A DNA stretch of 64,000 bases from IMG/VR virus record IMGVR_UViG_3300024272_000044. One strand, 5' to 3'. Under the pieces are notes generated by a model that worked only from the letters and a program-made list of their open reading frames with translations, ran no database searches and was not told where the DNA came from. Position numbers and translations under genes: made by a program. Shown here piece by piece: positions 17,429 through 50,200 of this stretch (within the stretch, counting starts at the first letter, position 1; the number at the start of each line of letters is the position of its first letter). The stretch comes from an uncultured virus (IMG/VR IMGVR_UViG_3300024272_000044). Taxonomy: Duplodnaviria > Heunggongvirae > Uroviricota > Caudoviricetes.

Positions 17429-17482
17429 AAATAATTAAAAAATATACTTGACAAATTAACTAATTTATAGTATAATTATATT

Positions 17483-28300: not shown

Positions 28301-30650
28301 GCAGCGATATGTGGATGTTAAAAATGTAATTTTAAGTGGAGGATTTGATATGAGATATGAAAAATTATATATTGATTTTGTTGATAGAGATTTTTTAGAT
28401 TTTACAAATGATGAATATGAGGGAAATATTGTTTTATGTGCAACAGATGAATTAATTAGATTAACTAATAACATTAGAAAAGAACAAGGGAATGAAGATT
28501 TAGTTGGTGTTGATTATGATAACAATGTTTACTATAATTTTTATCTTATGTTCAATACAAAGGAAAAGGAAGTTAGTATTCAAGCCGTATGTAATTACGG
28601 AGAAAAAGATGATGAAGTTTGGTATGAGTTGCCTATGACAACAGAGGAAGAAAGAAATGTAATGTTCATGCTAATTGAATGTTTGGCAAAAGAATTATAC
28701 AACAATTAAAAGGATAATTTTATATGGAGGTAATGATATGAAACTTAATGAAAAAGGCAAAGAATTGTATAAAGTTTGGGAACAGAATTATCATAAAGAA
28801 AATGATAATCTTGGAGGAGATTCTGCAAACGGAGATTTTATTGAGGGATGGTCTATCGTTGACAACTTTGATTATATCAAAAATATTACAGATGAATGTG
28901 GTTTGTTAATCTTTGGATATGATGATAATGCAATTAATATGGTTGATGAATGGCTTGAAGATGGGGATTGCAAAATTGGGAATCTTGGCTTCACATATAC
29001 CGATGTTAGAAATGAATTATCAAAATATTTTGAGTAAATAAAATGACGATTTTAGGTGGTGGAGATATGAAAAAAACTACATATACAACAACAAGATTTG
29101 ATGTAAATGATGATTTTTATGTAGAAGTTAGTCCAAACGGAGAATTAATTGAATTTGTATTATGTATGAATAATTATGGTATGAAGTCATATATGTTTGG
29201 AATGTATGAAAAGAATTGTCCAAAAGAAACTTGGGAAGAATTGATTGAAAATAATATTGAAGATTATATTGATAGTTTTTATAGTTATATATACGATGTA
29301 TATGAAAGTGGATTTTTAGAAGAACATGGATTTTTTAACAAAGAATAAGCACATAAAAGAGTGATTTTAAAAGGGGAAGATTAGTATGAAGAGATTAAAT
29401 ACAGAAGAAGTAAAACAGTTTGCTGATGCTTTAGCATTTACAGAAAGCGAAGCAAAAGATATTACAAATTTATTTTATAATCTTAAAATGGAAAATCCAA
29501 TCAATCATTGGAGAGTATTAATGCCTTTGAATGATGTGGATGAATATATCAGAGAATGGGAAAATCATTGGCATAGAGAAAATAACTTTACAGAATGTTT
29601 TGAATATGAAAAAGAAAATGAATACTTTGAATACGATACAGAAGTTGCAGAACAGATTTTTGTAAGTGAAGAAATTTTTAAAGAGTATGTTATGGGAGAT
29701 AAAGAAACACAGTTTGTTTATCAGTTACCTAATAATAATATGGTTGTGGTAGTTTGTTAGGCAAATAAAATAATGATTTTAAATAGAGGTGTACATATAT
29801 GGCATTATTATATGATGATTATATTGCGTTAAGAGACGGCAAAATGACAGAAGAAAAAGCAAGAGAACTTGGATTTGATAACTATAGGGAGGGTATGCAA
29901 CTTACTTTAGTAGGTAGCTTACATAATTTTAAATGTGGTGGAGCATTGCCAGAGGAGTGTACTTGGGGAGACAATGAAACATCAGATAATAGATAAGGAG
30001 TTGTAGATATGGCAATGGAAGATATTTTATTAAACAATATAGCAACATATAAAGACAGATATGAATACTATAATTGTAAAGGCAATGAAGAAAGAAGTGA
30101 TGAATATCTATCATTGCTACTATTAGAAGTAAAAAATCTATTGATTTTTAAAAAAGTATTTGACAAGTAGTATATAATGTAGTATAATATAAATAGATAA
30201 AAGATAAGGAGATAATTATATGAAGAAGATTACATTTATATATGCAGACAAGTTGTCAAATTGGGAATGGAGAATGCAACATTGTATCGTGAGTAGTGTA
30301 GAAGAATGCATTAAGTTTTATGGTCTTGATAATAAAGATTGTATGTATGAAATACTGGAAGTAGAAGATGTATAAGGAGGTTTATTATGAACGGATTTTA
30401 TAATGCAAGTACAGAAGATAAATTCAATAAAGTAGTTGAATTACTATTCAATCATGGATATGAATGGGTTGGAATGAATAAGAAGCCTACTTTTGCAGAA
30501 TGTAAGAAACTTGTTCATGGCAACAGTAAATTAATTATTGATGCATTCTATAATAGTATTACAAATAAAAAAGAAATTCAGTTTGGAACAAAAGCTATTT
30601 ATAATACATATCCACAGTACAAAGGCAAAATAAAGCTAATTGAAGTATAA
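25305..30650 (+). CDS. Run of about 17 small hypothetical proteins (e.g. 25305-25619, 25635-25973, 25973-26206, 26435-26677, 26761-26967, 26981-27202, 27222-27401, 27508-27966, 27986-28321, 28350-28709, 28738-29037, 29067-29348, 29386-29760, 29799-29996, 30387-30650)
   Basis: Co-directional, RBS-preceded, many strongly acidic; no recognisable domains. Confidence 0.75.
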
Positions 30651-30726
30651 ATAATACTTGACAAGTAGTATATATAGTAGTATAATATAAGTAGATAAAA
30701 GATAAGGTTATAAAGGAGGTGACTAT

Positions 30727-30912
30727 ATGTGTGAATATAGCAAGAGAGATGTAAAACGGATTCTTAAAAAGAATGGTTGGAAGTTACATCATTGCAAAGG
30801 AAGTCATGAGATTTATAGAAATGACAAGAATGAACATTTATCTATTGTTCCTAGCAGATGTAATAGACTAATCATGGAGAGATTAATGAAACAGTATAAT
30901 ATGGTTGTTTAG
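30727..30912 (+). CDS. HicA-family mRNA interferase-like protein
   Basis: LKKNGW...KGSH.IY...VP pattern, 61 aa. Confidence 0.8.
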   Translation: MCEYSKRDVKRILKKNGWKLHHCKGSHEIYRNDKNEHLSIVPSRCNRLIMERLMKQYNMVV

Positions 30913-30920
30913 GAGGCATT

Positions 30921-31145
30921 ATGTTTGAGTTTAACAAAGAGTACTATTTTAAAGAAAAGATGATTAAAGATGAATATTGTGTAGGGGATAAAGTTTATTA
31001 TCTGAATCACAAAAACGAATACGAAGTTGGAAGAATTAAATCAATTGAAAAAGATGATTTAAATAATGAAAACTTGTATATGATAACTGGATGTTTATAT
31101 TTAAGAAGTAAAGAACATATTTATGGTCTTTATTATACCACATAG
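30921..31145 (+). CDS. Hypothetical protein
   Basis: AGGAGG RBS. Confidence 0.7.
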   Translation: MFEFNKEYYFKEKMIKDEYCVGDKVYYLNHKNEYEVGRIKSIEKDDLNNENLYMITGCLYLRSKEHIYGLYYTT

Positions 31146-31207
31146 CGAATTACTACTTGACAAATAAATAAATATAGTATATAATATAATAAAGGAGGTT
31201 GATATTT

Positions 31208-31672
31208 ATGTTATATGTAGCTTATGGAAGTAATATGAATTTAAAACAAATGGCTTTTAGATGTCCAAAATCTAAGGTTATAGGAACTGGTAAGTTGTTA
31301 GGATGGAAATTAGTATTTAATTGTCATGCTGATATTATTAGTGGTGATGACTATGACGAAGTACCAGTTGTTGTATGGGATATTGATGATGACGATTGGG
31401 CTAGACTTGATATGTACGAAGGGTATCCAAACTATTACGTAAAAGAGTTTGTGAATGTTTTAATGGATGATGGAGCAAAAGAAAAAGCAATTGTATATGT
31501 AATGGCAGACAATAGAAAAGGAATCTGTCCACCAGAAGATAGTTATTTTGATGGAATTATCAAAGGTTGTATTAGCAATAGGATTGATGCAGGATATTTA
31601 TATGATGCGTTAGAGTATTCATATGCAAATAAAACAATGTATAATCAGTATACAACTAGGGAGATGGTTTAG
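31208..31672 (+). CDS. Gamma-glutamylcyclotransferase family protein
   Basis: YVAYGSNMN..QM..RCP and LDMYEGYP motifs. Confidence 0.9.
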   Translation: MLYVAYGSNMNLKQMAFRCPKSKVIGTGKLLGWKLVFNCHADIISGDDYDEVPVVVWDIDDDDWARLDMYEGYPNYYVKEFVNVLMDDGAKEKAIVYVMADNRKGICPPEDSYFDGIIKGCISNRIDAGYLYDALEYSYANKTMYNQYTTREMV

Positions 31673-32070
31673 TGAATAGAAATAAAGAGTATTATATTAA
31701 TTACGTTTGTCCATATTGTATGCACACATTAGACAATTGTATTTGCAAACTGTTTCCACCACATAATCTAATCCATATTGATAAAAATATTCAAGAGCAT
31801 GTAAGAATCTTAAATGATAAAGGTTATAGAACAATGTATTGTTGTGAATGTCATGAATCTGGCTCTAACACATATATTGCATTTATAATGGATTATTTTA
31901 AAGATATTAAACCACCAAAACACTTTGTATATAAAAAGAATAGAACAATTGTAAACCATTCTTATTCAAGCAAACTAACAAGAGAAGAGTTTGAAGAATT
32001 AAAGAAAAAGAATCTTGAATCATTATTAGAATGGTGTAATCAATTACCAAATCTACGCACGGAGAATTAA
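31672..32070 (+). CDS. Hypothetical Cys-rich protein
   Basis: GGAG RBS, GTG start overlapping upstream stop; terminator after. Confidence 0.7.
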   Translation: MNRNKEYYINYVCPYCMHTLDNCICKLFPPHNLIHIDKNIQEHVRILNDKGYRTMYCCECHESGSNTYIAFIMDYFKDIKPPKHFVYKKNRTIVNHSYSSKLTREEFEELKKKNLESLLEWCNQLPNLRTEN

Positions 32071-32293
32071 TCTCCGTGCTTTTTCTTTGTGTATATATAT
32101 AAAGTTTTTAAAAATTAGATTTTTTTGGATTTGTTGTACAATTTTTTTGAATTTTTAAAAACTTTACATATATGATTCGAAAAAATAATTTAAAAAATAT
32201 TATAAAAATAGCTTGACAAGTAGTCATTATAGTAGTATAATGAATATAGATAAAAGATAACGATAACATATTTAAAGGAAAGGATTGAATGTT

Positions 32294-33151
32294 ATGGCAA
32301 AAGAAAAATTTAATATCTATGAAGAAATCACAAACCGAATTATTGAACAGTTAGAAGATGGCAACATCCCTTGGCATAAGCCTTGGAGTGGCATCACAAA
32401 TGGTGCATATAATAGAGTAAGCAAAAAGCCTTATTCATTACTTAATCAGATGTTGTTAAAACATGATGGAGAATATGCTACATATAAACAATGGAGTGAA
32501 TTAGGTGGAACTGTTAGAAAAGGTGAAAAGTCTGAGATTGTAGTATTTTGGAAGATTTTAGAAGTAGAAGAAAAGGATAATAATACTAATAGAGTAGAAA
32601 AGAAATGTATCCCATTACTTAAATATATCAATGTATTTCATGTATCTCAGGTCGATGGAGTAGAGCCAAAGGAAATTAAAGCAATGGAACATGAGCCTAT
32701 TAAAGAAGCAGAAGATATTAAAAACAACTATATGAATAGAGAAAACATTTGTATTAATGAAACTGTATCTGATAGAGCATTTTATAGTCCAGTAAGAGAT
32801 TATATTCAAGTACCATGTAAAGAACAGTATAAGGATGTATTAGAGTTTTATAGCACGTTATTCCATGAAATGATTCACAGTACTGGTCACAAAGATAGAC
32901 TTAAAAGATTAGATTGTGCTTCTCAGTTTGCTAGTTTTGGTTCAGAAGATTATTCAAAAGAAGAGTTAATTGCAGAGATTGGTTCAGCATTCTTAATGAA
33001 TCATATTGGAATTGAAAGCAATAAAACATTCAAGAACTCTACTGCATACATTCAGAGTTGGTTAAAGGTATTAAGAAACGATAATAAGTTTATTGTAAGT
33101 GCAAGTGGAAAAGCAGAAAAGGCTATGAAGTATATCTTAGGAGAAGTATAA
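32294..33151 (+). CDS. ardC: ArdC-like ssDNA-binding antirestriction protein with zincin domain
   Basis: IPWHKPW, ATYKQW...VRKGEK, VFHVSQ, HEMIHSTGH and YSKEELIAEIGS motifs. Confidence 0.9.
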   Translation: MAKEKFNIYEEITNRIIEQLEDGNIPWHKPWSGITNGAYNRVSKKPYSLLNQMLLKHDGEYATYKQWSELGGTVRKGEKSEIVVFWKILEVEEKDNNTNRVEKKCIPLLKYINVFHVSQVDGVEPKEIKAMEHEPIKEAEDIKNNYMNRENICINETVSDRAFYSPVRDYIQVPCKEQYKDVLEFYSTLFHEMIHSTGHKDRLKRLDCASQFASFGSEDYSKEELIAEIGSAFLMNHIGIESNKTFKNSTAYIQSWLKVLRNDNKFIVSASGKAEKAMKYILGEV

Positions 33152-33177
33152 TATATAAGGTTATAAGGAGAATAAAT

Positions 33178-33531
33178 ATGAAAGCATATAAATTATTAAG
33201 AACAAAGAAAGATGGCAAATTATATCCGTTATTTATTAATAAAACAGTTGAAACACCTATTGGAGAATGGATGGTTGCAGAGTGCCATCCAACGAAAGGA
33301 TTTGCCATTAGACAAGGTTGGCATTGTTGCTTTAAACCAATAGCACCACACTTAAAATTAGAGCTTAAAACTGGAGAAAAACGCGTATGGGTTGAATGTG
33401 AAGTAGAAGATTTTGAAAGCTACGATAGACCAGAATCACAAGGTGGAGCATGGGTTCTTGCACAGAGAATGAAGATTAATAAAGTATTAACATTAGAGGA
33501 AGTAAATAATATTAATAAAGTTGAGGCTTAG
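33178..33531 (+). CDS. Hypothetical protein
   Basis: AAGGAG RBS; terminator after. Confidence 0.75.
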   Translation: MKAYKLLRTKKDGKLYPLFINKTVETPIGEWMVAECHPTKGFAIRQGWHCCFKPIAPHLKLELKTGEKRVWVECEVEDFESYDRPESQGGAWVLAQRMKINKVLTLEEVNNINKVEA

Positions 33532-33770
33532 GCTTCAACTTTTTTATTTACAAAGAAACAAAAGTTATTTCTAAAGAAACAAAAAAGTTTATTTTTTAAA
33601 AACTTTAAATAGATATATTTCGCAGCAGAAAAATTTAATTTTTAAAAACTTTAAATAGATGTTAATAAAAAAGTTTCGTTAAATATATAAAATTATCTTG
33701 ACAAGTAGATTTATACATGATATAATAAGTTATAGATAAAAATAAGACAACAAGAAAAGAGGTAATAATT

Positions 33771-34193
33771 ATGGCAAGAAGAAGCAGAGAAGAGATTTAT
33801 AAGAACACAAGTACATTCACTTATTACAATGCAAATCCAAAGAATAGAATTACTGGTGATTGTACATTCAGAGCAATTAGTACTGCACTTGGACAAACTT
33901 GGGAGCAGACAGTAATGGAGATGGCACAGTTAAGTTGTGAAACTGGATATGCAATCAATGATACAAAAGGCATTGAAAGATATATGAAGTTAAAGGGTTG
34001 GACAAAAATGAAACAACCTAGAAAATCAGACAATACAAAGTATACTGGCAAAGAGTTTTGCAAGATGTTTAAAGGTGTATGTGTAGCAAATATTGGTGGA
34101 CACCATGTAGTATGTATTAAGAATGGTAAAGTGCATGATATTTGGGATAGTACAGATGGATGTATTGGAAACTACTGGATAAAAGAAAGTTAA
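33771..34193 (+). CDS. Hypothetical protein, possible papain-like Cys peptidase fold
   Basis: GDC..RAI, H.V and D.WD pattern suggests a Cys-His-Asp triad. Confidence 0.5.
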   Translation: MARRSREEIYKNTSTFTYYNANPKNRITGDCTFRAISTALGQTWEQTVMEMAQLSCETGYAINDTKGIERYMKLKGWTKMKQPRKSDNTKYTGKEFCKMFKGVCVANIGGHHVVCIKNGKVHDIWDSTDGCIGNYWIKES

Positions 34194-34281
34194 TAAAAAA
34201 ATAAAAAATATGTTGACAAATAGTTTATTAGCTGATATAATATAATCAAAGGAAAGGATAATATAAAAGGAGGTATAAACA

Positions 34282-34617
34282 ATGACAATTAAAGAAATGA
34301 AAGCAAATCATGATTATAGTTTTGAATGCAATATGTCAGATTGGTATAAAAACTATGAAAATATTGATGAATGGGGTTGTGCATTTGCATGGTATGGTGA
34401 CATTGGTGTAGAATATAACTTCGCTGTTGAAACCTATAACAATGAAAAATACACAGCTTGTGCAATCTACAAAATGGAATTTAATAATGAAACAGAGAAT
34501 ATGGAAACAGATTATGATACATTTGTTGAATATGATATTGATTTCAATGATGTAGATTGGATTGACAAACTGGAAAATGCAATGTGCGAAGCATTAATCA
34601 AATTCTTCGATTTATAA
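34282..34617 (+). CDS. Acidic hypothetical protein
   Basis: Promoter 34213, AGGAGGT RBS. Confidence 0.75.
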   Translation: MTIKEMKANHDYSFECNMSDWYKNYENIDEWGCAFAWYGDIGVEYNFAVETYNNEKYTACAIYKMEFNNETENMETDYDTFVEYDIDFNDVDWIDKLENAMCEALIKFFDL

Positions 34618-34653
34618 AATTAAATAAAACTAATCAGAATGGAAGTGTTAACA

Positions 34654-35043
34654 ATGGCTGGATATATCAAGCTAGAAGTAGAGAAGTTGGAAACACAACA
34701 AATTAATTTAAAGATTAACGCAGAAATTTTTGAGGGTTTTCAAAGAAAATGTAAAATTAGAAACCTACAAATGTGTACTGTTATCGAGGCTTTTGTAAGA
34801 CAATATGCAAATGATGGATATCATTTGAATGAAGAAGATATTATCAAATGGAAGAATGATAACGGAGATGTATCCACACTAAACACTCCAGTTAATAAAG
34901 AGGTTTATAATCAATTTAAAAACAAGGTAAAAGAAAATAAGCTATTCGTTAAACATGTTATATCTGCTTTTATTGAGGATTATGCAAGTAATGACTATGT
35001 TTTAGAGCTTAAAAAAGTAGAAGAATATGGAGGTGGTAATTAA
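34654..35043 (+). CDS. Tandem ribbon-helix-helix-like DNA-binding protein
   Basis: Two internal repeats (INLKINAEIFEGF...VIEAFVRQYA / LNTPVNKEVYNQF...VISAFIEDYA). Confidence 0.55.
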   Translation: MAGYIKLEVEKLETQQINLKINAEIFEGFQRKCKIRNLQMCTVIEAFVRQYANDGYHLNEEDIIKWKNDNGDVSTLNTPVNKEVYNQFKNKVKENKLFVKHVISAFIEDYASNDYVLELKKVEEYGGGN

Positions 35044-35044
35044 C

Positions 35045-35296
35045 ATGTTTGACCCACTATTTATTATTTCTTTAATTGGCACTTGTGTACATGCATTTAA
35101 AGAAACATATGAGGAAGAAATTCCTGCTGAAAATTGGGCTAATAAACAATTATATCATGAGGATATTATGAAAGGTGTTTCAGAAGAACAACGTATAAGA
35201 AATGCTAAAGATGGAAAATATAAACTTAAAAAAGGACAATCGGGTAAAATTAAAAACAATGGTATTCCTTTAGTGAAAGGTAGATATAGCTTATAA
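35045..35296 (+). CDS. Hypothetical protein
   Basis: GGAGGTGG RBS. Confidence 0.65.
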   Translation: MFDPLFIISLIGTCVHAFKETYEEEIPAENWANKQLYHEDIMKGVSEEQRIRNAKDGKYKLKKGQSGKIKNNGIPLVKGRYSL

Positions 35297-35314
35297 CACA
35301 ATTGGGATGGGAGA

Positions 35315-36097: not shown

Positions 36098-36117
36098 ACG
36101 AAAGAGAGGATTATATT

Positions 36118-37200
36118 ATGGCAATTGACAAAATTTTAAAGATTGAAGGTTCTAGCATTACATGGACATGCAAACAGATTGTAAAAATGATGGATAAGAA
36201 AACAATTAGTTTTAAGAACGTAGTACAGAGAAGTTTTGTTTGGGAAAAACATAGAATGAGTGAATTAATTTGGAGCATTATCATGGGATATCCTATTCCA
36301 CCAGTATATGCAGAACGTGGTGAAAGTGATAGTGATAAGGTTAAAATTTATGATGTAATGGATGGTCAGCAGAGAAATACTTCTATTTATAAGTATATGA
36401 AAGATGAATTTGAATTAACAAAATTAAAACCTATTCCATACTTAGACGAAGACGGAAATGAATGTACTATTGATATTTCTGGCAAGAAGTTTTCTGAATT
36501 GGAAGAAGAATTACAGGATGCAATTAAAGATGCAACTATTACAGTTAAGTATTATGACAATCTTGACCAGACTCAGAAAGCAGAAATGTTCAGAAGATTA
36601 AATAATGGAAAACCATTATCAACTAAATCAAGAACACTTGCATCTGCTAAGAACATTGGTGAATTACTTGATATTGGCTCACATAAGTTATTTGAAGATA
36701 TGCTGACGGAAAAATCAAGAGCAAATAAGAATCATGCAGTAATTGTAACAAAAGTATTAACAATGTTAAACAATGATGTAGATAATGTTTCATTTGCAAG
36801 TAAAGACTTTAATCCACAGATTGAAGCAATGGAAGTAACAGAAGATGATAAAGTTGAATTAAACAAAGTATTTAACTATATTGTAAATGTACATGAAGAA
36901 TTAGCAAGCAACCATGAAAAGGACGTTGCTAGAAAATTATATACAGAAACACATTTAGTTTCACTTGTACCATTCGTAAAGCAGTCTATTGATAATGATA
37001 TTACAGAAGCTATGTTTGGAGAATTTTTAACATCATTCTTCAAAACAGAAAACGATTCAGATGTGTATGCTAGATATATGGAAGCTACATCTAATGGAGT
37101 GGCTAGAAATGGCTCTATCGTTGCTAGACACAATGCTTTAAATGAAAGCTATGAAGAATTTTTTAAAGAAAATTCAGAAAACGTATTGACAAACGAATAA
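36118..37200 (+). CDS. DUF262 (ParB/GmrS-like) domain protein
   Basis: QRSFVW, YPIP, DGQQR and FRRLNNG motifs. Confidence 0.85.
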   Translation: MAIDKILKIEGSSITWTCKQIVKMMDKKTISFKNVVQRSFVWEKHRMSELIWSIIMGYPIPPVYAERGESDSDKVKIYDVMDGQQRNTSIYKYMKDEFELTKLKPIPYLDEDGNECTIDISGKKFSELEEELQDAIKDATITVKYYDNLDQTQKAEMFRRLNNGKPLSTKSRTLASAKNIGELLDIGSHKLFEDMLTEKSRANKNHAVIVTKVLTMLNNDVDNVSFASKDFNPQIEAMEVTEDDKVELNKVFNYIVNVHEELASNHEKDVARKLYTETHLVSLVPFVKQSIDNDITEAMFGEFLTSFFKTENDSDVYARYMEATSNGVARNGSIVARHNALNESYEEFFKENSENVLTNE

Positions 37201-37298: not shown

Positions 37299-40200
37299 AT
37301 GGCAAAGACAAGAGAAACACCATGTTTATATTATATTTGTGCAGGACAATGTGAAAAGGGTAGAGATGCAGAACACACCAAATATTGTCAGAGATGCGAC
37401 AAATATAGACCTAGAGCAAAAGTAAGACACTTAAACAAGAAGAAGCAGAAGTTGGATAAGATTCGTAAAAGTGAAAGATACGAGTAACGGAGGTGCTTAT
37501 GAGAAGTTTAAAGAAAACAGAAGAGGTTGTTGAAAAGATTCTCGATATGAGAAAAGATACAAGAGAGAACGATGATATCCTTTATCTGTGTGTATGTGAA
37601 TATTTTCATAGAGGAGCATCATCAATGACGTTAAAAGCGTTTCTTAAATCTAGAAATAAAATGAACTGTCCTAACTTTGCATCTGTAACTAGAGCAAGAA
37701 GAAAAGTTTTTGAAAGAAGACCAGAGCTTAAGCCACCAAAAGTAACAGAACTTAGAGAGGATATGGAAGAAGTTTATATTGATTATGCGATAAACGGATA
37801 ATAAAATGTGAATTTTAAGTGGTTGAGAGGTGGAAAATATGAAATTTGGATTTAAAAAAATAATAAACAACATCGAACTAACAGACGAAGAAGCATTAAC
37901 ATTGTATAATGCAAGAAAAATTTTGTTTGAAGCAGAAAGAAATATTGTAGAATCTTTATGTGAATATGATGAAGATTTATTAGAAGTGATTAGAAGTGGA
38001 TTGTCTGGATTGGATATTTGCAATGCTAGATTAGATGTAAATATCATTGTTGAAACATCTGAATGGGAATAAAAGGAAGATTTTAAGTTGTTACGAGGTA
38101 AAAATATGACGATTAAAGAGCTATATGAATGGGCTATTAAAAACAATGTCGAAGATTATGATATTCGTATTCAATATCGTGATGAAGGTGGATGTTATTG
38201 TGGAAGCGATACATTATGTGAAGTAGATATTGAGATTGATAGATTGAGATTAGAAGTAACATTATAAAAGACAGATTTTAAGGGGGTAAGAATATGAGTT
38301 GTGATTTTTGTAAAACAATATGGAGTAGCGAAGAAGAATATAAAAAACATTTTTCACACCCTTGGAGCGAAGAAGATGCTATTATTATGTTTAAAGATGA
38401 ACCTTGGCTGTATGCAACATGTGGTGACCATTATTATAATGGAATCTTGATGCCAATTGGTTATTGTCCAGTATGCGGAAGAAAATTAACATAAAAGAAA
38501 CATTTTAAGTGATTAAGGGGTGAAAATATGTTAGAAGAATTATTAAAAGAAATTAATGAGTTAAAAGAATATAAAAGGATGTATGAATGTGCATCAAAAG
38601 ACAAACAAAGAATGTCTGAACTTTTATATGATTATATGATGCAAGAATACGAAAATACTAGCAAAGAAAAAAGGGTAGAGTTACATAAAATAAACTGTTG
38701 TAGTTGTTGTAGATATAGTGATTGTTGTGATATGGAATTTCCAGAAGATGTTTGGAAACCAATTCCAAGTGATAAAGCATGGATTCCAGCAAAAACAACT
38801 TGTGGAAGTTTTAAATGGGCATAAAAGAAACATCTTAAGAGGTGAAAAATATGACAAAATATTTTTGTGACCGATGTGGTAAAGAAGTGAAAAGAACAAT
38901 ACAAATAAAAATCCCAAAAGAAAAGTTAAGTGGTGGAAATTTTAGCACAATGTCTATAGAAGTGTGTGATGATTGTAGAAAAGAATTTGATATAATAATT
39001 GACAAACTTACAGACATTAGATTTATTTTATTCAATGATTTTATAGAATAAAAATTACAATAAAAGTAAAGTTTTAAGTGGAGATTATTATGAAAGATTA
39101 TTTAGTTACAAGTGATTATGGACAGTACGATAATATGTGGATTGTTCTTGCGAAAGACGCAAAAGATGCAATTCAGCAAGTTTGGGAAAAATATATTGTT
39201 CCAATGAATGAAGATATTAAAGAAGAGAATAAGAGAGATGGTTGGGACTATTATAGAACTTGTAAGAAGAGTGAACTATGTGCGAAAAGCATTGGAAGTT
39301 TGCATAACTCAAACGGAAAAATTATTAGATTATAGCACACAAAAGCAGAGTTTTAAGTGGTAGAAAATTATGAAGAAGTTAATTAGTAGATGGGAAGACT
39401 TAGTTGGATTAGAATCAAAAGATTATTATTTGGATATTGAACTAGATAATGGTTGTGGACACATTGTTCCAAAGGTGCAAACGGAAGATAACTGGTTTCA
39501 TCCATATTTAAGTACGCATACATTTTATGGATTGAATTATAAAGATTCTACAATATTATTACAAGAACACGGATTTGACGTTCAACTTGAGAATTGGGAT
39601 GGAGAAACTGAATTAGTAGATTATAAAGAACAATGGCTACATAATGGCAAATGTGAGTTTTGTAGAAAGAAAGATTATTGTAATAAGAAATGTAAAGCGT
39701 CATTAAAATATGACGAATGGAAGAAACAATGGCAATAAAGCAGAGTTTTAAGTGGGAGGTAAAAATGATTTGGATTATTATTGGATTAATTGTATGTATT
39801 GCAGTAATAGTAGGAATTGTTAAAGACTGGAGTAATAGTTGGTTAGAGAAGATTTTATATTCAATATTGTCGATGATAGCAACTATCTTTGTTGTTTTTG
39901 TAGTTTTGCTTGTTCCAAGTATTATCACAAGTGAATGTTCAGAAGTTGAATATAAAATGATTTCAGATGAAAAAATTGTAGCATTAAAAGATAATCAGAA
40001 TGTAAATGGAGATTTTTATATTATGGGTGGTTATGTAGACGAAGACTTGTATTATTATTATGCTACAGAAACAGAATTTGGTTATGGTATAGAAAAGATA
40101 AAAGCTAGTAATTCTTATATTAAACATACAGATAAGGAAACCCATATTGAAAGGTATGTCGGAGATTTTAAAAATAAAAAATCATACATTTGGGGATTTC

Positions 40201-41940
40201 CAATGTACAATGATAGATATATTGTTTATTGCCCAGAGGGAACTGTAACAAATGAATTTAATGTAGATTTAGAATAGTTTTATTAGGAGGATTTTATGAG
40301 AAAATTAATTTTAAGATGGTTATTTGGTACTGATGATATAGAACATTATTTTAAATTATTAAATAGAGATAATAAGCATCTTCAAGAATCGATTGATTTG
40401 ATTGATGGACATTTAAAAACTTTGGCTGAAGAAAAAGAAAATTTAGATATTATTAGAAAATTAGTTAAAGTATGTGAAAATCACGGAATCAATGCAGATG
40501 AAGAAATAAAAGAGGTTGAGTTATAAAATCAAAGTTTTAAGAGGTATAGAATATGAACATTTTTAACAATGAAACAAGAAAAATTATATGTATTGATAAC
40601 GATGATGCTGGTGCTTGGGGTTTTAGTGGAACTGGGCATTTGTTAACTGTTGGAACAGAATACACTTTGGTTGATGTGGATGTTCATGGATGGCATACAA
40701 TAGTTGAATTAGAAGAGTTTCCAAATGTGCAGTTTAATAGTATCTTATTTGAGGAGATTGATAACTAGCACATAAAAGAATGTTTTTAAGGAGTGTAAAA
40801 TGAATAGAGATAGAGATATTTATTATATTGTAAATATTAAAGAGATTTATAGAAATCAATTGGCACATACAACAATTAAAAAGGATTTTTGTGGAAAATA
40901 TCATCATGAAGCATGGGGTGTTGTATGGTTTGAATTATATCATAGTGGTGCTTTTGTTGTAATTCCAGAAGCATGGATTGAATGGATTGCTCCAGCAGAA
41001 AAATTATGGGTCAGATAAAACAGTATTTTTAAGTGGATAAGTGGAGGTGAAATTATGGGTGAAGTATTAGATTATGATGATTACTTAAATAAAAAAGTAG
41101 AAATTATTCACACGTCAAAACAAAAATATCATAAATTATTACATATGATTGGTACGGTAGAAAGAATATCATCTGAAGATATTGGTGTTGTTTTAGACGG
41201 TTTGAGAAATGAAGCAAGTAGTTATGGTGTATTTTGGTTTAAAAAAGATGAATTAAGAATTATGGAGGATGATAATATGAAAGGTTATAAGAATGTAGCA
41301 ATTGTAAATTTTTTAGAAGATTATAATAAAAAGGACTATGCATTTGCATTGTTTGATGAAGAAGAAAAGTTGATTACAAGAGAAAATCAATTAGTAGTTG
41401 TAAATGCAAGAAGTAAAGATAATCGTGTTCTTGCTGTTGTAAAGGAAATTATGCCAGTAGAAATGTATAATGAAAAAATTGCTATTACAGCACAAGTTGT
41501 TGGAGTGGTAAATATGGACGGATACATTGCTCGTGTTGAAGAAGAACAAAGAATTAAAGAACTTGAAAAGAAAAAATTGGCTATTGAAAAAGAATTAGAA
41601 AAAGAAATCAACAAGAGAAAGTCCGTAGAATATTATGAAGCAATGGCAGAAAAATATTCAGATAATCCTAAGTTGGCAGAACTTGTAGCAGAATTAAAGG
41701 GATTGGGGTTATAAAATTTAAGAGGTGTATATGAATAACGAATTATTTGAAAAGAGAATATTATTTGAATCATTATCTCAGATTATGGAAAATCAGAAAA
41801 ACATCATGAGGCATATTGGTATTACAAGATATGATTCTGATTGGGGATATAATGATGACAATACAAGAAATTTAATTGAACAATGTAATGCAATTGTTAA
41901 TGGAATTAATTGCGAAGACAAAAACGATTGGGATTGGTAA
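37299..41940 (+). CDS. Array of about 14 small hypothetical ORFs, mostly delimited by TAAAA-N6-TTTTA sites
   Basis: e.g. 37299-37487, 37499-37801, 37830-38072, 38106-38267, 38294-38494, 38528-38824, 38851-39051, 39090-39335, 39370-39738, 39765-40277, 40296-40526, 40553-40768, 40800-41018, 41055-41714. Confidence 0.75.
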
Positions 41941-41960
41941 TAAAATAAGACTTTTATTTG

Positions 41961-42014
41961 TTTACAATTTGTTTACAATTTGTACATACGGAGTTCATAA
42001 ATATATTTTATAAT
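41961..42014 (+). promoter_or_regulatory. Candidate PhoP/OmpR-type activated promoter
   Basis: TTTACA, TTTACA, TACATA, TTCATA at 11-bp period (41961, 41972, 41983, 41994), then TATAAT at 42009 with no TTGACA. Confidence 0.5.
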
Positions 42015-42042
42015 ATATGTAAATAAAAAGAGGAGGTAATAT

Positions 42043-42375
42043 ATGGTGGTTAGAGTATACACAGATATATGGAATAACTTTCAGTTTAGAGCACCATGCT
42101 ATTTAGACGGACACTTTGAACCATATAAATATGACTTAGTTAGATGGGTTAATCGTGATATTCCTACCGAGGTGACAGATTTAACAACTGGAAAAAAGGT
42201 TATGTCTGACAAATATTGCTATAGTATTGCACAGCTAACGTGGGATAAAAAAGAGGGATGGTTCGATTTCGAAAGTGTGGGGACTAGATATTTAGAAGAT
42301 AGAATTGACGGTCTTGAAGAATGGATTTTAGAATTCTGTGAAATGATGGGAAAGGAACTGTCAGAAGATTATTAA
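42043..42375 (+). CDS. Hypothetical protein
   Basis: GGAGGT RBS. Confidence 0.75.
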   Translation: MVVRVYTDIWNNFQFRAPCYLDGHFEPYKYDLVRWVNRDIPTEVTDLTTGKKVMSDKYCYSIAQLTWDKKEGWFDFESVGTRYLEDRIDGLEEWILEFCEMMGKELSEDY

Positions 42376-42419
42376 TTTTTAAATTAAATTATCAGAATAT
42401 TCAAAGAAAGGAAATAAAT

Positions 42420-42989
42420 ATGAAAAGACAGATTAGAAGAGGAACATTTGAAACAAACAGTAGTAGCACACATGCAATTTGTATCACAAAATCAGATGTG
42501 GACAAAGCAAATCTTCCAAACTATGTAGAGTTTGAACATGGAGAATTTGGTTGGGAAGTAGCAGAATATCACGGATTGCATTCTAAGGCATCTTATTTAT
42601 ATCAGGCGATTTGTGATTGCTGTTATGACAGAGATGATGCGAAAAAAGAAATGTTATACAAAATTGAAGAAACATTGGGTAAATATGGAATCACTTGTAG
42701 CTTTGAACCAGATAAAAGTGAATGGGGAGATGGTTATATTGACCACGGTGGTGACACTATTGATTTTGTAAGTGCTGTTCTTGAAGACGAAGATAAACTT
42801 CTTAGATATTTATTTGGAGATAGTCTTGTAGTAACTGGAAATGATAATGGTGACGGCTATAGAGACAGAATGTATGTTAATGAGGGTGAAAAAACAGAGA
42901 AATGGGGTAATAGCACCTATACATATACTGAATATGGTGGACTAAAACCAGAATTTGATAACTATGAAATTTATGAAAAATGGAATTAA
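42420..42989 (+). CDS. ETNSSS-motif protein (paralog 1)
   Basis: N-terminus MKRQIRRGTFETNSSSTHA. Confidence 0.8.
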   Translation: MKRQIRRGTFETNSSSTHAICITKSDVDKANLPNYVEFEHGEFGWEVAEYHGLHSKASYLYQAICDCCYDRDDAKKEMLYKIEETLGKYGITCSFEPDKSEWGDGYIDHGGDTIDFVSAVLEDEDKLLRYLFGDSLVVTGNDNGDGYRDRMYVNEGEKTEKWGNSTYTYTEYGGLKPEFDNYEIYEKWN

Positions 42990-43002
42990 GGAGATTAACA
43001 GT

Positions 43003-43311
43003 ATGAAAAGACAGGTTAGATGTGGAGTGTTTGAAACTAATAGTAGTAGTACACATGCGTTGACAATGTGTACAAAGTCAGATTTTGAAAAGTGGGTGGA
43101 TGGAGAACTTGTTTGGAGCAGATGGAGTGAAGAACTTGTTCCTATTACAAACAAAGTAAAAGAATCTATGGAAGATGAAATTGGTTGTGAATATTTAACA
43201 TATGAACAGTTTAATGACTGGGAATATATGGATTATGAAACATTTGAACAGACATTCGAAACACCAAATAATGAAAAGATTGTTGCATTTGGATATTATG
43301 GATATTGTTAA
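43003..43311 (+). CDS. ETNSSS-motif protein (paralog 2)
   Basis: N-terminus MKRQVRCGVFETNSSSTHA after AAGGAG RBS. Confidence 0.8.
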   Translation: MKRQVRCGVFETNSSSTHALTMCTKSDFEKWVDGELVWSRWSEELVPITNKVKESMEDEIGCEYLTYEQFNDWEYMDYETFEQTFETPNNEKIVAFGYYGYC

Positions 43312-43328
43312 TAAAAGGAGATAATTAA

Positions 43329-44213
43329 ATGAAAACATTAGGAGTATACAAAAACGGAAATTATAGAGTAATCATTATGGATGACGGAACAAAAATCAGA
43401 GAGACAAATGAAGATGAATTTATTCCATCTTTTGCTGAAAACTGTGATTGCAAAATTACAGATAAATGTGATGGTGGTTGTCCATTTTGCTATGAGGGGT
43501 GTACTCCTAATGGCAAACATGGAGACATTTTAAACTATAAATTCTTGGATACATTACATCCATATACCGAACTTGCTATTAATGGAAACGATATGAGCCA
43601 TCCAGACTTAATTCCATTTCTTGAAAAACTAAAAGAAAAGAAAGTTATTGCAAACATGACAGTAAATCAGATTCACTTTGAAAGATATCAAGACATGATT
43701 CGTGACCTAGTAGATAAAGGATTGATTCATGGTCTTGGAATTTCATTAAATAATCCAACTGAAAAATTTATTGAACTTGTTAAAACATATCCAAATGCAG
43801 TTATTCATGTTATCAATGGAATTTTAAGTCCGTCAGATGTTGGAATGCTTGCAGATAACGATTTGAAGATTCTTATTCTTGGGTATAAACTGTTAAGACG
43901 TGGTGTTACCCATTATACAACAGAGCATAACAATATTGATTCTTTACAGTATTGGCTCAAAGAAAATCTTGAAGATATGCTTAATCATTTTAAAGTAATT
44001 AGTTTTGACAATCTTGCAATCGAACAGCTTGAAGTTAAAAGACTTATGAGCGAAGAAGAATGGAATGAGTTTTACATGGGAGATGATGGCGGATTTACTT
44101 TCTACTTAGACTTAGTGGATGGAAACTTTGGAAGAAATTCTCTTGCAACAGACAGATATTCAATCATGGATAATATCGATGATATGTTCCAGAAGATTTT
44201 AAATGAAAGATAA
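43329..44213 (+). CDS. Radical SAM protein
   Basis: CDGGCPFC = CxxxCxxC motif. Confidence 0.9.
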   Translation: MKTLGVYKNGNYRVIIMDDGTKIRETNEDEFIPSFAENCDCKITDKCDGGCPFCYEGCTPNGKHGDILNYKFLDTLHPYTELAINGNDMSHPDLIPFLEKLKEKKVIANMTVNQIHFERYQDMIRDLVDKGLIHGLGISLNNPTEKFIELVKTYPNAVIHVINGILSPSDVGMLADNDLKILILGYKLLRRGVTHYTTEHNNIDSLQYWLKENLEDMLNHFKVISFDNLAIEQLEVKRLMSEEEWNEFYMGDDGGFTFYLDLVDGNFGRNSLATDRYSIMDNIDDMFQKILNER

Positions 44214-47200
44214 GGTACGAACAATGACGTTATGGAAAGTTAAGAAATGTTATTTTAATTATGATAATAATGTATCAGAAATTGCATATGTAATTTTACC
44301 ATATGATTTAAAAGGACATTTAGAATGTTGTTTTAAATGGTATGGAATCGAAGGATTAAAGTGGTGTTATTTATTTGAAAAGCAGGCAAAACGTAAAGCA
44401 GATAAGTTAAATAAACAATTAAAAGAAAGGTTTTAAGTGGTGATTGATTATGTTATTTTTAAAAATTTATGCAGCATTTTGTATTTTAACATTTCTAGTT
44501 GTTGTAATGCAGAGTTATGTATTATATAAGGAAATTAAAAGAGAATATCCAGATGCAGTAGAAGAATATCTTAAGAATCATAAAAGAAATATTTTGGAAA
44601 GAATGTTTGCATGGGCAAGAGTGATTATTGCTTGTTTTGTTCCAATTATAAATATTGGCATCTTTTACGTTGCAATGTTTGAGACGGAAAAGGTAAAAGA
44701 CGTGTTTATAAGTAAAGAGCTAAAGTTATAAAAGAAGGATTTTAAGTGATGGTTGAAATTAAATGTATAGATGAATATACAACTAGATTAAAAATGTTGC
44801 CAGTATGTGATTGTGGATATGTATTTAAAGATGGTGTGGTTTGCAGTATGATGTATCATAAAGTAGGCGATATTGAATATCCAATGTATTTTATTGAGCC
44901 AAATATTTGTCCAAATTGTAAAAAGGTAATTGAATGTATTGAACTTGATAGAGATAAAATTGATTTTACAAATGGAGATTTAAGTGATGAAAGACTATGA
45001 AAAAATTTTTATTAATTTAATGAACCAGATTTATGATTGGCGTGCTCGTAATATCGAGCCAACTAGAATTATCCTTGGAACAGAAATCGTAAAAATTCTT
45101 CATAACTCAACTTGTCATATTTATGAAGCAACTGATTATGGTGTTGTTGAATTTATGGGAATACCAGTAACAATTGATTATAAAAACAAATGGATTATAA
45201 TGGCTTGTGATGGCGAGGAATGGGATATGAGAAATTTTTTAAGCACATAAAAGAGAAGTTTTAAGTGGAAAAATTTTGCAAAAAAGCTATTGACAAATAT
45301 AACCTTATTTGTTATAATATGTATAGAAACAAAGAAATAGTAAAGTTATAGGAGATAAGGTTATATGAAAATATATCAGATACATGAACGTGGTGGCGAA
45401 TGGGAAGATTATTATGACTATATAGTATCTAGTTATCTTTCAGAAGAAAAGGCAATTGCAGAAAAAGAGAGACTTGAAAAAGAGCAAGCAGAAAAAATAA
45501 AATGCAATGAGTGTCCGTTATATTATTGTCCACAAGATTGTCAGCTTGATTGTTTGTCTGAACATGATAAATGTCAGAAACGTGCAATCGAGGAGGCAAA
45601 AAGACGTTGTGAATACTATGAGTCAAGTGATGATGAAAAATGTGCTAACTATTATTATGATATTTATGGCGATAGTTCTTATAGTATTGAAGAAGTAGAA
45701 GTGATTGAGTAGGTGATGATATGACAAGTGCAATTTTAGTATTAAAATATATGCCAGACATGTGTAGAAATTGTCCATTGTTTGATTTTAATAATCGTGG
45801 AGAACCAATTTGTAACAAAGAAAACAAACGCATTGATTCTATGTATAGAAAACCAGATTGGTGTCCATTAGTAGAATTACCAAAGTATTCAGTAAGAGAC
45901 TATCCAGAGTATGATAGATATGTTACTGGATATGATGATGGTTGGGATGCTTGTATTAATGAGATTTTGGGAGAATAGATTATGAATAAAGCGATATTGG
46001 TATTAAATGAAATGCCTAGCTGTTGCATAGAGTGTCCATGTAGAACAAAAAATCTTTTGGATAAAGATGTATGCAATTGTTTATATGAAAATAATGAATT
46101 AGGATTACATGATTTAATGCATGATAGACCATATTGGTGTCCATTAAAAGAAGTTCCAATGGGAATAGATGCTTATGTTCCAGAATCAGTAGATTACTTG
46201 TCATATCATAGAGGATGGTATGATTGTAAAAGAGAAATTACAGGAGACTAAATTTATAAAACGGTAATTTTAAGAGGTGATTAACATGGCGATGCCAACA
46301 AGAGAAGAATATGAAGAAGCGTTAGAGAGTAAAAAATATTTGGATGATGCAATTAGAAGAGAATATAAACGCAGAGATGATTTAATAAATCAATTATGTG
46401 GTTCGCAAAAGTTATTAGATGGTTATAAAGAGTCATTGGATTATCAGAAAGATATCATTCAGAAGTATGAGATTTATCGTGAAATATGGATGGATAGTAT
46501 TAGGAATATGTAGTAATAAAAGGACTGTTTTAAGAGGTGTAATATATGGATTTGAGAATGTTAGAAAGAGCAGCGATGATTGTTTTTGAAATGTGCAGAC
46601 AACATCCAGAACTTTGTCCACATGATTATGATTGGGTTTCTACTAATTTAAATACTGGGATAAAACGTTATAGATGTAATATTTGTGGAAAAGAAAAGAT
46701 AGTAGAAGAATAAAATGAACATTTTAAAGAGGATAGCAATATGATAATGGATGGATGGCAAGCTGAAAATTATATGAAAAGATTGGAAAAAGATAACATT
46801 ATAAGAACCGTTCCTATTACAGAAGGAATGACAATTTATTTTAATAATGCAACTTCATATTATGAAGAAAAAAATAAGTTAAAAGAAGCTGGTTTTAAAA
46901 TGGAATGTAGTGATGATGTTTATAGTGTTTATATTCTTTCTTGTCCATATAAATATAATAATGAAACAATATATAGAATAAAATGATTATTTTAATGTAT
47001 TAAATTTTAGGAGGTAAATTATATGAAACTTAGAAATATTAATGATGTAAATGATTTTTTAAATGTTGTAGAAAGCTGTGAAGGAGAAGTATATTTAACT
47101 AGTCAGTATGGGGACAAGTTTTGTTTAAAGAGTTATATGAGCAGATATATTGCTCTTGGCGCATTGCTTGGAGAACGTGGTGATGAGCTTGAAATCTTTT

Positions 47201-50200
47201 GTGAATATAAAAGCGATGAATATAAATTCTTAGACTTTTTTGAAGACCATAAGCATGTATTATTTGGAGGAAAATCAGCAGAATAAAAAACATATTTTAT
47301 GGGGTAGAAAATGGAAGAAAGAAGATACAAAGTTTTAATTGATAATATGGTTGTTGCAGAGAGAATGGATTTAAAGACAGCAACAATATTGGTAAAAGCA
47401 TTATTTGATGAATATTATAATGATTATAAAATGGTTGTAAGCGTTAAAGCAGAAGATAGAGCTGTTTGTTCGGAAGAAGCATTTGACTTTTAACTAGAGA
47501 ATAAAATACGAATTTTAAGTGGTGGTTAACAATGAATAAAAGACAGCGAAAAAAATATAAAAAGAAAATAGAAATGTTCACAGAATCTTATGTGTCTTCT
47601 TATAGAGAATTAAGAGAACTTGATAGAAGTTATCACGATTTTAAACTTTCGTGCGACAGAATGAAAAAACTAGGACACACATGGGATTTAGAGTTTCTAT
47701 TGAGTAGATAAAAATAAAATTTTAAGAGGTGATTATATGGAAAATAAAAAGAAGTGTCCTAAATGTGGAAAAGAAATGTCGTTTTATATTGAAGGTAATA
47801 TTGCTGGTTCATTAGGTGTGTTTGAATGCGAATGCGGTTATAAGAATAAAAATGGTTTAAATATACATTATGCTACGGATGAAGATTGGGAGAGATTTCA
47901 TAATAATACTAGGGGTATTATGTGGTAATAAAAATAGAGTTTTAAGAGGTTGCAGATATGAGTGTTGCTTATGGAATAAATACAAAGGTTGTTGTAAAAG
48001 GTCAATGTAACCATCCAGATAAAAGAGGTATAGTTGAAGAGTATTTAAAAGACGGTCTTCCAATTCCAAAGTTTTCATGGACTCATTGTGTATTTTGTCA
48101 TAATGATGGCTGTGTATTCGGTGGAGAGTGTAGTTATAGAAGCAAATAAAAATATACTTTTAAGGGGTGGATTATGGCAAGCTGGGAAGATAAATTTGTT
48201 AGAATTTTAGAAACAGATGATTGGGTCGTAGATTACGATAAAGAGAAAAGAAAATATAGAGTTAGTAAATTTGAAGGCTATCATTTCAAAGATGAAATTT
48301 GGTTTGATGCTTATGAAGAAAATGAAGTTTCTAAAAAATGGTATCTTTTTAAAGATAGACTTCCTAAACTTAATGAGTTAGTTGAAGTTAAAATTGTTGT
48401 AGATGGCGAAGAAAGATATTATTTAGACCAATTAATGCAGACAAAAGATGGTAAATATAGATGGCTCTATAATTATTATGGTAATGCAGAAATTTCTTGG
48501 AGACGTGTATAATAAAAATTATATTTTATGGGGTAACAACATGTATTTAGAAGAATATGAAAATGAAAATTGTAATCTTGCTGTAGGTAAATATAAGATT
48601 AAAAATGGTAGCAAGTTTATTGCTGGTGGAAAGGTTTCACAATTAAATTTAATGTTAGACCAACATTTTAATTGGTTTCAGAAACTAATGTGGAAATGGT
48701 GTTTTGGAGTAAAAGTAGAAGATTATAGTGATGAGTAATATGAAATTAGATTGTTATTTTGAAGAATGTAAACATTGTATAAATAGACATTTTAATGATA
48801 AGCTTGTGTGTTGTCTTACAAATAGATTAAGTCTAGCATGGCATAATTGTTTGTTAGAAATTCCTATTATTAATAAACTTATAAAAAAAGAAAAATACTG
48901 TCATTGGCATACGAATGAAAATTTGTTTAAAGCGTATTATTCTAATGATAGTCATAAAACCATAGGAGATATACTAAAATAAGGGGAAATATATATGAAT
49001 TGTAGAGAAGAAATTATTCAGAATATTAAAGATTGTGGTCAGTCGTTAATTGATAATGCAGAAAAGATTGCAAATGATTTTAAATATCATACAGATTTAA
49101 CTATCACTTGTTATCCTACAGAAAAAGATAGAGCTCCTCGTATTATTGTAGAAACAGAATTTATACCAGAAAAAATTGTTGAAAGATATATGTAAGAGGT
49201 AAGAATATATGGGATGCGTAAGTACAATTAGTTATTATAATTTTCCTAAACAAGCGGATAGTAGCTATAAATATCCCCATCTTGGAAAAGTTGTAGAAGT
49301 TTGTTATCACTATGATACAAGCAAGAAACATAGGGGAATTATTGTTAGAGACGACAGAGAAGAGCCATTTCAGACGATTATTGCATTAGAGAACGGTAGA
49401 TATGTGCTTGGAACTGAATGTCAGTATTCATTTGTTGACTAATAAAAACTTAATTTTATTGGGAGTGAATTATGAAAAAATCAGAAATAACTCGTAGACA
49501 ATTTTCTGAGAATTGCCAATCTTGGTTCAGTAAGAATTGTGCTTGTTGGGCGAATAATCATAATGGATGGTCTAAAATGAAAAAGAAAAACAGAAGATTG
49601 TTTAAAAAGAAATATAGAAGAGAAACAGAAAAAGAAATAAAGGATACTTTAGATGGAATGTAAAGATTGTAAATATTATAAAGTAGATAGTTTCACTTTT
49701 AATGGTAAAAAGTATACAAATCGTATGTGTGAAATTACTCATTTATGCAACACGAAATCTTGCAACGCAGAAAGTTATGAACATATTGAGAATGCAAATA
49801 TATGTTTTAATTGTAAATATTGGCATGGTGGTGGAGACTGGGGTTTGAGTTGCGAGAAAAATTATTATAATTGTAGTGCTAACGGATTTGATGAAGTGTG
49901 TGAACAATTTGAAAGGAAGCAGTATGAGAGGAATTTTTGATAGAATTATTGCAAGATTAGAAAATATAAGTGAATATGATGACTATGGAGAAATTGTAAA
50001 TTTAGACGAAGCGTTGAGTGTTATATATGAATTAAGAGACGAATATAGTGATTGTATTTATATGTCGTTGGATGATTATATGAAACTTGTTGAGTATAAA
50101 TATATGTACGAAGACTTGCGTAGGTAGGTGAATAGAAATGATTAGTAATCCAAAGTTTGGTTGGTGTGATTTTAAACTAAGAACGTTCTATGGAAGTCCA

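Follow-up and report, generated by a model that had tools for sequence, protein, structure and literature searches.

Barcoded recombination-type sites at the gene junctions of an SPbeta-like phage and its relatives, and their possible role in slot-by-slot exchange of accessory genes

The 64,000-nucleotide stretch analyzed here (the window) comes from the uncultured virus IMGVR_UViG_3300024272_000044, an SPbeta-like phage with a genome of 153,181 bp (G000), and it carries a series of short sites of the form TAAAA-N6-TTTTA, that is, two inverted 5-bp arms around a 6-bp spacer, at the junctions between small genes. An earlier note, made from the letters alone, had read positions 28,319 to 49,458 as an integron-like cassette array served by the tyrosine recombinase encoded within it. 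The features concerned are the following, in window coordinates.

28319..29781, plus strand: left site cluster; five sites with spacers ATGTAA, GGATAA, TGACGA, GAGTGA and TAATGA, all placed after a stop codon and ahead of the following Shine-Dalgarno (SD) sequence or start codon
35315..36097, plus strand: tyrosine recombinase YR1 (260 aa); its nearest sites are 5.5 kb and 1.7 kb away
36118..37200, plus strand: GmrSD-N / ParB-like protein, directly after YR1
37802..49458, plus strand: main cluster; 26 sites (23 exact, 3 variant), mostly bounding single small open reading frames (ORFs)
38492..38837, plus strand: 98-aa ORF between two GAAACA sites, the second with a mutated right arm (TCTTA)
39340..39750, plus strand: 122-aa ORF between two GCAGAG sites, with the left arm mutated in both
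41941..44435, plus strand: multi-gene cassette of four ORFs, including a radical-SAM-like Fe-S protein, between the TAAGAC and GAAAGG sites

The 31 sites claimed for this range resolve into 28 exact copies (34 in the whole window) and three one-arm variants, at 38822 (right arm TCTTA), 39340 (left arm CAAAA) and 39735 (left arm ATAAA). The fixed spacer length also holds, with no N5, no N7 and two N8 arrangements in the same range, where 100 dinucleotide shuffles yield a mean of 0.46 sites and a maximum of 3; over the whole genome we count 57 N6, 2 N5, 6 N7 and 11 N8 arrangements. Sites of the main cluster lie 194 to 1,009 bp apart, plus one distance of 2,479 bp. The upstream ORF's stop ends within −9 to +4 of the left arm at 29/31 sites, and the arm's own TAA is that stop codon at 14/31, as had been noticed before. 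The right arm does run into the next ribosome-binding site, with an SD-like word at most 24 nt after 29 of the 31 sites, but the exact word AG(T/A)GG named earlier is present at only 15. An AGCACA extension of the left arm is found at the four positions previously given (29354, 39340, 40773 and 45248). When 305 sites of ten family members are brought into one orientation, (A/T)G(A/T)GGT comes next after the 5-bp arms; in its fullest form, the site has arms of about 11 bp, ACCAC(A/T)TAAAA / TTTTA(A/T)GTGGT. The inner 5 bp are invariant and the outer 6 bp complementary at 0 to 4 of 6 positions; since the left flank mirrors the right only weakly, the 11-6-11 inverted repeat described earlier is retained as an ideal form, which few copies attain.

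The strict N6 spacing and inverted arms are those of Xer/dif-type sites, as is the asymmetric center: none of 418 distinct spacers is palindromic, against 8.8 expected from a column shuffle and about 4.7 from the rate in decoy AAA-N6-TTT sequences (20/1,781). XerH/difH and XerS/difSL are alike in full geometry too, with two inverted arms of some 11 bp that enclose an exchange region of 6 bp (PMC5357621). A dif site, however, occurs once per replicon and serves dimer resolution, while these phages carry 30 to 60 co-oriented junction sites, each with its own spacer.

Among 17 relatives compared, 23 of the 31 window spacers recur; each spacer of the left cluster does so in 3 to 9 of the 17, next to non-homologous neighbors. 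G000 has 18, 17, 18 and 14 spacers in common with G001, G002, G003 and G012, respectively (random expectation 1.2 to 2.1, at most 7 in 1,000 trials), forming collinear runs of 17, 16, 18 and 14 (at most 10 to 12 after shuffling), and a further 25, 24 and 17 in common with G041, G042 and G043. Spacer order in ten core relatives agrees for 8,651 ordered pairs and disagrees for 119. The genes beside the sites do not follow: in 135 site-relative pairs with the same spacer, a homologous ORF is found downstream in 2 and upstream in 1, and of 15 homologue matches to cassette genes, 6 follow a site (2 at the same site, 4 at a different and usually nearby one). SPbeta carries these arms 34 times (N5 1, N7 3), with a different address list, which has one spacer in common with G000, at chance level, and 21 with phi3Ts. 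Because spacer order is kept while the neighboring genes differ, the spacers are behaving as slot addresses, with genes replaced slot by slot in a fixed order. This order, together with the block ends described below, supports the earlier idea that spacers act as compatibility codes, and it contradicts the gene reordering that had been proposed with it.

The same order bears on an integron-like platform, in which the adjacent recombinase would excise single-gene circles, reinsert them and reshuffle gene order. Integron attC sites have the box motifs R'' (RYYYAAC) and R' (GTTRRRY), and both are nearby at 0/31 sites; the IntI-family model TIGR02249 gives 21 bits for YR1 against a cut-off of 265, and no match for YR2, a second recombinase of the phage introduced below. 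As in integrons, one-gene units without promoters are arrayed close to a tyrosine recombinase (PMC8138268 for insertion by IntI), adjacent identical spacers occur in G000 (twice), G012, L009, L387 and L401, and some gene families occupy different, nearby slots in different phages. Yet address order is conserved and no attI-like entry point is seen; the system, with no IntI, no attC boxes and no reshuffling toward one entry site, is not an integron, and integron-like reordering by the adjacent recombinase is extremely unlikely.

Both ORFs reported earlier as flanked by identical spacers are real, but each pair contains a site with a broken arm, and the same is true of the identical-spacer pairs of L009 and L387. 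Perfect same-spacer repeats within a genome, counted in either orientation, are rarer than expected in nine YR2-bearing lineages (1 observed vs 6.7 expected, P = 0.008) and commoner in six records in which no YR2 is detected, three of them fragments (3 observed vs 0.6 expected, P = 0.026). Matched repeats may arise by insertion and then be lost unless an arm mutates, and the 98-aa ORF probably marks such an insertion into a matched site, with the arm mutation having locked it in place. In the first 4 kb of G012 (oriented), the address run GAGTGA, GTGTGG, TAATGA occurs twice and two of the repeats have a broken arm, a pattern suggestive of insertion of a block of several cassettes. An automated search among perfect Bacillus sites returned one clean cassette indel, and no single-cassette circle is found among the listed joints of four runs (contigs only; 62 joints unlisted). 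Capture and excision as circles, the earlier proposal, thus appear only indirectly supported, adjacent identical spacers being their basis.

Where two genomes share a block of DNA, its ends often coincide with these sites. A contig of the independent run X11 (record 9) aligns with window positions 41,940 to 44,442 with 73 differences in 2.5 kb (about 97%); the block starts 1 base before site 41941 and ends 7 after site 44420, after which the contig has 519 additional bases ahead of the next gene, and elsewhere the contig is far more diverged (130 differences in 713 positions, 36,114 to 36,826). G001 and G042 share a 562-bp block of 96.6% identity that runs from ATAGAG −3 to ATGAAG +23, taken from a listing of 30 blocks, many without ends at sites. 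In seven Bacillus SPbeta-like phages, five of them covered only in part, 134 of 627 block ends fall at a site (within −10 to +26) in either genome and 77 in both, with equal spacers in 62 of the 77; sites cover about 1 to 1.5% of each sequence. Among the 77 double-site ends, 31/47 starts lie at −1 to +1, none lies inside or to the right of the spacer, and 21/30 ends lie at +16 to +19. The shared DNA therefore takes in the whole site and stops at its edge.

Gene junctions that bear a site carry a block end in 48/54 cases, compared to 85/278 site-free junctions, in pairwise counts with heuristic gene calls and with site junctions enriched among accessory genes. Among identical tracts of at least 1 kb between SPbeta and phi3Ts, 6 of 18 ends are at sites (chance 0.9% each), and in seven 40-kb phages 55 of 266 block ends are (about 4% expected). 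One of the SPbeta/phi3Ts tracts is the mtbP methyltransferase gene of SPbeta (NC_001884.1, 113,664 to 115,059; L628), which is exactly one site-to-site cassette, identical in phi3Ts. Some joins link mismatched spacers; they are in register, and the spacer goes to one side or the other, as would be expected from exchange of a single strand pair at the spacer edge and equally from 5-bp microhomology. The earlier note had suggested testing whether breakpoints of gene gain and loss fall in the N6, and across these phages blocks do start and stop at the arms; in sum, we are confident that the sites are preferred crossover joints.

Joints of this kind could also be made without a dedicated enzyme, if arms, spacer and SD merely served as boundary or linker sequences, 16 to 30 bp of identity used by phage annealing proteins or host repair. 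Conserved order would follow, since only matched copies give enough homology; same-spacer identity often extends through the SD and once to the start codon; many block ends lie away from sites, mismatched in-register joins need only 5 bp of microhomology, and laboratory hybrids fit homologous recombination (10.1101/2020.05.06.055103). Such linkers leave unexplained, however, an invariant palindrome with exactly six free bases in phages of Bacillus, Staphylococcus, Lactococcus and Clostridia, the absence of palindromic spacers, the tie to one recombinase family, and block ends that halt at the arm edge instead of variably within the SD. We consider this explanation unlikely, with a minor but real chance of being correct.

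A regulatory role, with breakpoints that are merely intergenic, was weighed as well, the sites serving either as operators, bound by a repressor of recombinase or other fold, or as RNA hairpins through which translation of neighboring genes is coupled. The sites overlap stop codons and SD sequences, and one SPbeta copy is annotated as a stem-loop, the sites otherwise being unannotated as such in the SPbeta stretches viewed. The SPbeta master repressor MrpR (YopR) has a tyrosine-recombinase fold and binds a repeated element, SPBRE, so that a recombinase-fold protein and a repeated element also meet in an SPbeta-like phage (PMC10516654). SPBRE, on the other hand, is a 15-bp motif found in some ten promoter regions, and the protein that binds it is catalytically dead (PMC10516654), whereas the present sites sit inside operons, away from sigma70-like promoters, and both YR1 and YR2 keep their catalytic residues. 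Predicted RNA folding of the sites is weak (median −2.1 kcal/mol, arms paired in 12/31), and an Rfam scan returned no family apart from tRNAs; the hairpin reading was rejected on these grounds. An operator or hairpin would also not hold a position-specific spacer while both neighbors change, and block ends are far commoner at site junctions than at other junctions, which makes regulation a very improbable account of the sites.

With respect to the enzyme, YR1 is intact, as the earlier note had stated, with residues R99, K127/K128, H199, R202, H229 and Y238 invariant in 31/31 aligned sequences. It consists of a catalytic domain and about 55 N-terminal residues, which would seem to leave no room for the usual core-binding domain; its AlphaFold model (pLDDT 51) was too poor to use. 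YR1 and the following GmrSD-N/ParB-like gene have the same arrangement as yopP and yopQ in SPbeta, where yopP directly precedes yopQ (PMC8612738), with no significant similarity detected of YR1 to YopP or of the GmrSD-N/ParB-like protein to YopQ. Since the YR1 family is missing from SPbeta, phi3Ts, E3, phi6255, G033 and G008, which have 15 to 60 sites each, YR1 is probably not the main enzyme of the sites, contrary to the role given earlier to the adjacent recombinase. The more likely candidate is encoded elsewhere in the genome.

G000:C1:140489-141523, outside the window, some 12 kb ahead of its position 1: recombinase YR2, 344 aa, just before a tape-measure-sized ORF

YR2 is an orthologue of SPbeta YomM (26%, E = 5e-15); SPbeta itself integrates via the serine recombinase SprA (PMC8270828, PMC8612738). 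Its predicted structure (pLDDT 94) has a two-domain CB+CAT fold that matches XerA, lambda Int, Cre and XerH, with conserved catalytic positions R175, K208, H283, R286, W309 and Y321. A site follows the YR2 stop codon by 26 nt in G000, 28 nt in G002 and 2 to 3 nt in L501/L502 and L504/L505, and the YR2 gene is flanked by sites on both sides in 40-kb phages; a site beside the recombinase gene, seen for YR2 in G000, G002, L501, L504 and the 40-kb phages, is a further likeness to single-recombinase Xer systems (PMC5357621). Both YR1 and YR2 nevertheless score far below the XerC/D/S/A NCBIfam cut-offs. G008, G014 and G040 (L517 to L523) are complete 40-kb phages with 15 to 16 sites and a YomM-type protein as sole tyrosine recombinase, YR2 being the only PF00589 match in G008 and G014, and they form the simplest natural system for testing. 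Among 23 genomes selected by YR2, N6 exceeds N7 in all 23, and 13 have at least 9 sites with a four-fold excess. N6/N7 counts in YR2 phages are 18/4 for Staphylococcus, 36/1 for Mammaliicoccus, 9/1 for Lactococcus, 30/1 for Geobacillus, 17/1 for Psychrobacillus, and 23/2 and 22/1 for Bacillus, compared to 0/1 and 4/0 in two YonO-bearing phages without YR2. G011 (47% complete) has 34 sites, and G013 has 20 sites with only a weakly matching recombinase, located at the YomM position. Taken together, these gene and genome comparisons make YR2, and not YR1, most likely to serve the sites. We found no description of the motif or of a role for YomM in the literature searched, in which coverage of subscription papers is incomplete, nor is the motif seen in the available parts of two SPbeta overviews (PMC8270828, 10.1101/2021.11.22.469490).

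The same address-matched exchange could instead be run by YR1, by a lineage-specific recombinase at that position (e.g., YopP) or by a host Xer-type enzyme. YR1 is conserved and lies between the site clusters, and the site-bearing G004, G005, G006, G009 and G012 have a XerC-like recombinase of 324 to 349 aa at the matching place and no detected YR2. Against this, the arms are identical in all phages, including those lacking YR1, the 40-kb phages have YR2 only, and YR1 shows neither significant similarity to YopP nor, it seems, a core-binding domain. Moreover, the arms resemble dif sites (PMC5357621) in geometry only and the hosts span several families. We regard another enzyme as quite unlikely.

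From the site statistics, the conserved addresses and the block ends at sites, all of them observed, we infer the action of a recombinase, its identity and its reaction steps as follows. TAAAA-N6-TTTTA would be a tyrosine recombinase core, with inverted arms around an asymmetric 6-bp strand-exchange region, in which the left arm doubles as stop codon and the right arm as ribosome-binding site. Because nearly every site has its own spacer, recombination between sites of one genome would be inefficient, and a site would instead pair with its counterpart of equal address on a related phage that shares the cell, through co-infection or as a prophage. One crossover would give a hybrid genome joined between unrelated genes, and two would replace everything between two addresses; with crossovers at matched addresses, address order stays fixed while genes turn over. 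More rarely, a gene would be added at a matched site, leaving identical flanking spacers that are kept only if an arm mutates, or a deletion would occur in register between mismatched neighbors. The acting enzyme would be YR2, the YomM-type protein whose gene lies outside the window. Our best reading of the sequence comparisons is a natural form of recombinase-mediated cassette exchange that takes place between co-resident phages; that a YomM-type recombinase acts on core sites with matching addresses in two related, co-resident genomes, to give hybrids and slot replacement, seems to us marginally the likelier side of an almost even balance.

Several observations weigh against YR2-driven exchange. 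In most of the other YR2 loci (34 examined), no site adjoins the gene. G005 (87% complete), G006 (97%) and G009 (complete) have 10 to 12 sites, some of which carry spacers of G000, and no detected YR2, while the complete G031 has YR2 and no excess of sites (N6 8 vs N7 7), 10 of the 23 YR2 genomes, several being fragments, fall short of a clear excess, and G034 has YR2 together with a perfect repeated spacer. Co-occurrence of YR2 and sites partly reflects shared ancestry, and G008 and G014 helped build the YR2 profile. About four-fifths of the Bacillus block ends lie away from sites; the block-end counts are pairwise and non-independent, amounting to 38 distinct spacer/type events; joins between mismatched spacers are common (15/77), so that matching is not strict; and all four flank combinations are present at only 1 of 28 Bacillus spacers, with three at 13.

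Four laboratory hybrids of phi3Ts and SPbeta (10.1101/2020.05.06.055103) add to these points. Of their 19 parent switches, ten were dropped as five back-and-forth flickers, probably reference differences, and none of the nine crossovers kept is forced onto a site: eight are in long identical tracts that contain sites and one is in a site-free tract of 41 bp. The segment swap from phi3T to phi3Ts likewise ends in conserved genes, away from sites. Since site-bearing tracts make up 50% of the identical DNA and are also the longest, eight of nine crossovers says little, and the hybrids are uninformative on site use. Ordinary homologous recombination clearly operates alongside.

In heterospecific lox/FRT cassette exchange, sites with the same arms and incompatible asymmetric spacers allow a double crossover to swap a segment. 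That is an engineering method with two or three spacers, whereas the phage system would be natural and have dozens. The pdif (dif) modules of Acinetobacter plasmids are alike in having many sites on a mobile replicon that bound accessory genes, and in exchange via cointegrates that resolve into hybrids (PMC9455709); near-identical site-bounded modules in different contexts are found in the phages too. These plasmid modules, however, use host XerC/XerD and two different arms, while the phage arms are one sequence inverted, on a phage replicon, probably used by a phage enzyme, and are fused with stop codon and SD; the available part of PMC9455709 mentions no family-wide ordered address list. The PeSL cassettes of T4-type phages are likewise repeated intergenic elements, located in hyperplastic regions of the phage genome, that mediate insertion, deletion and replacement of genes, with mini-circles (PMC2839356). 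PeSLs are promoter-terminator units that recombine as repeats, in contrast to the 16- to 28-bp promoterless phage sites with differing centers, whose folding is weak and whose genome has its sigma70-like promoters elsewhere.

Further features in and near the window, including sites absent from the earlier note (61664, four at 14893 to 18832, the 12-site cluster past the window end and the one beside YR2), are the following.

5830..8748, minus strand: YonO-type single-subunit RNA polymerase, marking an SPbeta-like phage
14893..18847, minus strand: four exact site copies, outside the main range
61664..61955, plus strand: two further sites, AAGAGG and TGGTGA, in the replication region
64,700-68,703 in the window frame, just past the window end: third cluster of 12 sites, from the whole-genome scan

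YonO, the YomM-type recombinase before the tape measure gene and the early recombinase with its ParB-like partner, a pair matched to SPbeta by position and domain alone, place the phage among the SPbeta-like phages. It also encodes a terminase, tRNAs (eight genes at 4,165 to 5,028, minus strand, between the RNA polymerase and the terminase region) and replication genes. Almost none of the cassette ORFs is named by Pfam or PHROGs. HicA-like toxin, gamma-glutamyl cyclotransferase and ArdC antirestriction genes occur at 30,727 to 33,151 and 52,852 to 55,175, as do the auxiliary metabolic genes for a class V aminotransferase (IscS-like) and FolD. Between 13,400 and 27,500, and more sparsely to 37,200, single small ORFs each have their own sigma70-like consensus promoter and terminator (32 such promoters in the window, 23 of them between 13,400 and 27,500), and between them lie about 60 copies of a repeat whose core is TTTAAAAACT, nearly all on one strand. 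This repeat is lineage-specific, since it is at background level in eight related genomes, and operator-like and PeSL-like elements are candidate readings for it. Within the promoter array, the site copies at 14893, 18305 and 18832 have a left AGAG-type extension, face the opposite way and follow terminators. The runs that contain the phage are faecal and bovine gut metagenomes, with no RNA run among the matches listed as containing it, and related contigs occur in metagenome-assembled genomes (MAGs), three under the title Clostridia and one, which may be misbinned, under Paludibacteraceae.

Why the boundaries of phage mosaics fall cleanly between genes is a long-standing question, to which the usual answer is random illegitimate joining followed by selection. 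Here, what marks the boundaries is a strict recombination-type site with an individual barcode. SPbeta-like phages and several unrelated Firmicutes phages might carry a 'sexual' exchange system, made up of a YomM-family recombinase and an ordered set of 30 to 60 uniquely barcoded sites with the spacer list defining the exchange group, a proposal that we hold tentatively and rate at somewhat less than an even chance. If it is true, related phages would trade accessory genes slot by slot, with no gene homology required, by a natural multiplex cassette exchange that offers dozens of orthogonal sites for one recombinase and that would directly explain, in mechanistic terms, why mosaic boundaries lie at gene junctions. 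Confirmation of the enzyme and of slot-wise exchange would make the system categorically new, and since it is also present in SPbeta (34 sites), it is testable in B. subtilis 168 with existing phages. Spacer lists would then be a means to define which phages can exchange genes.

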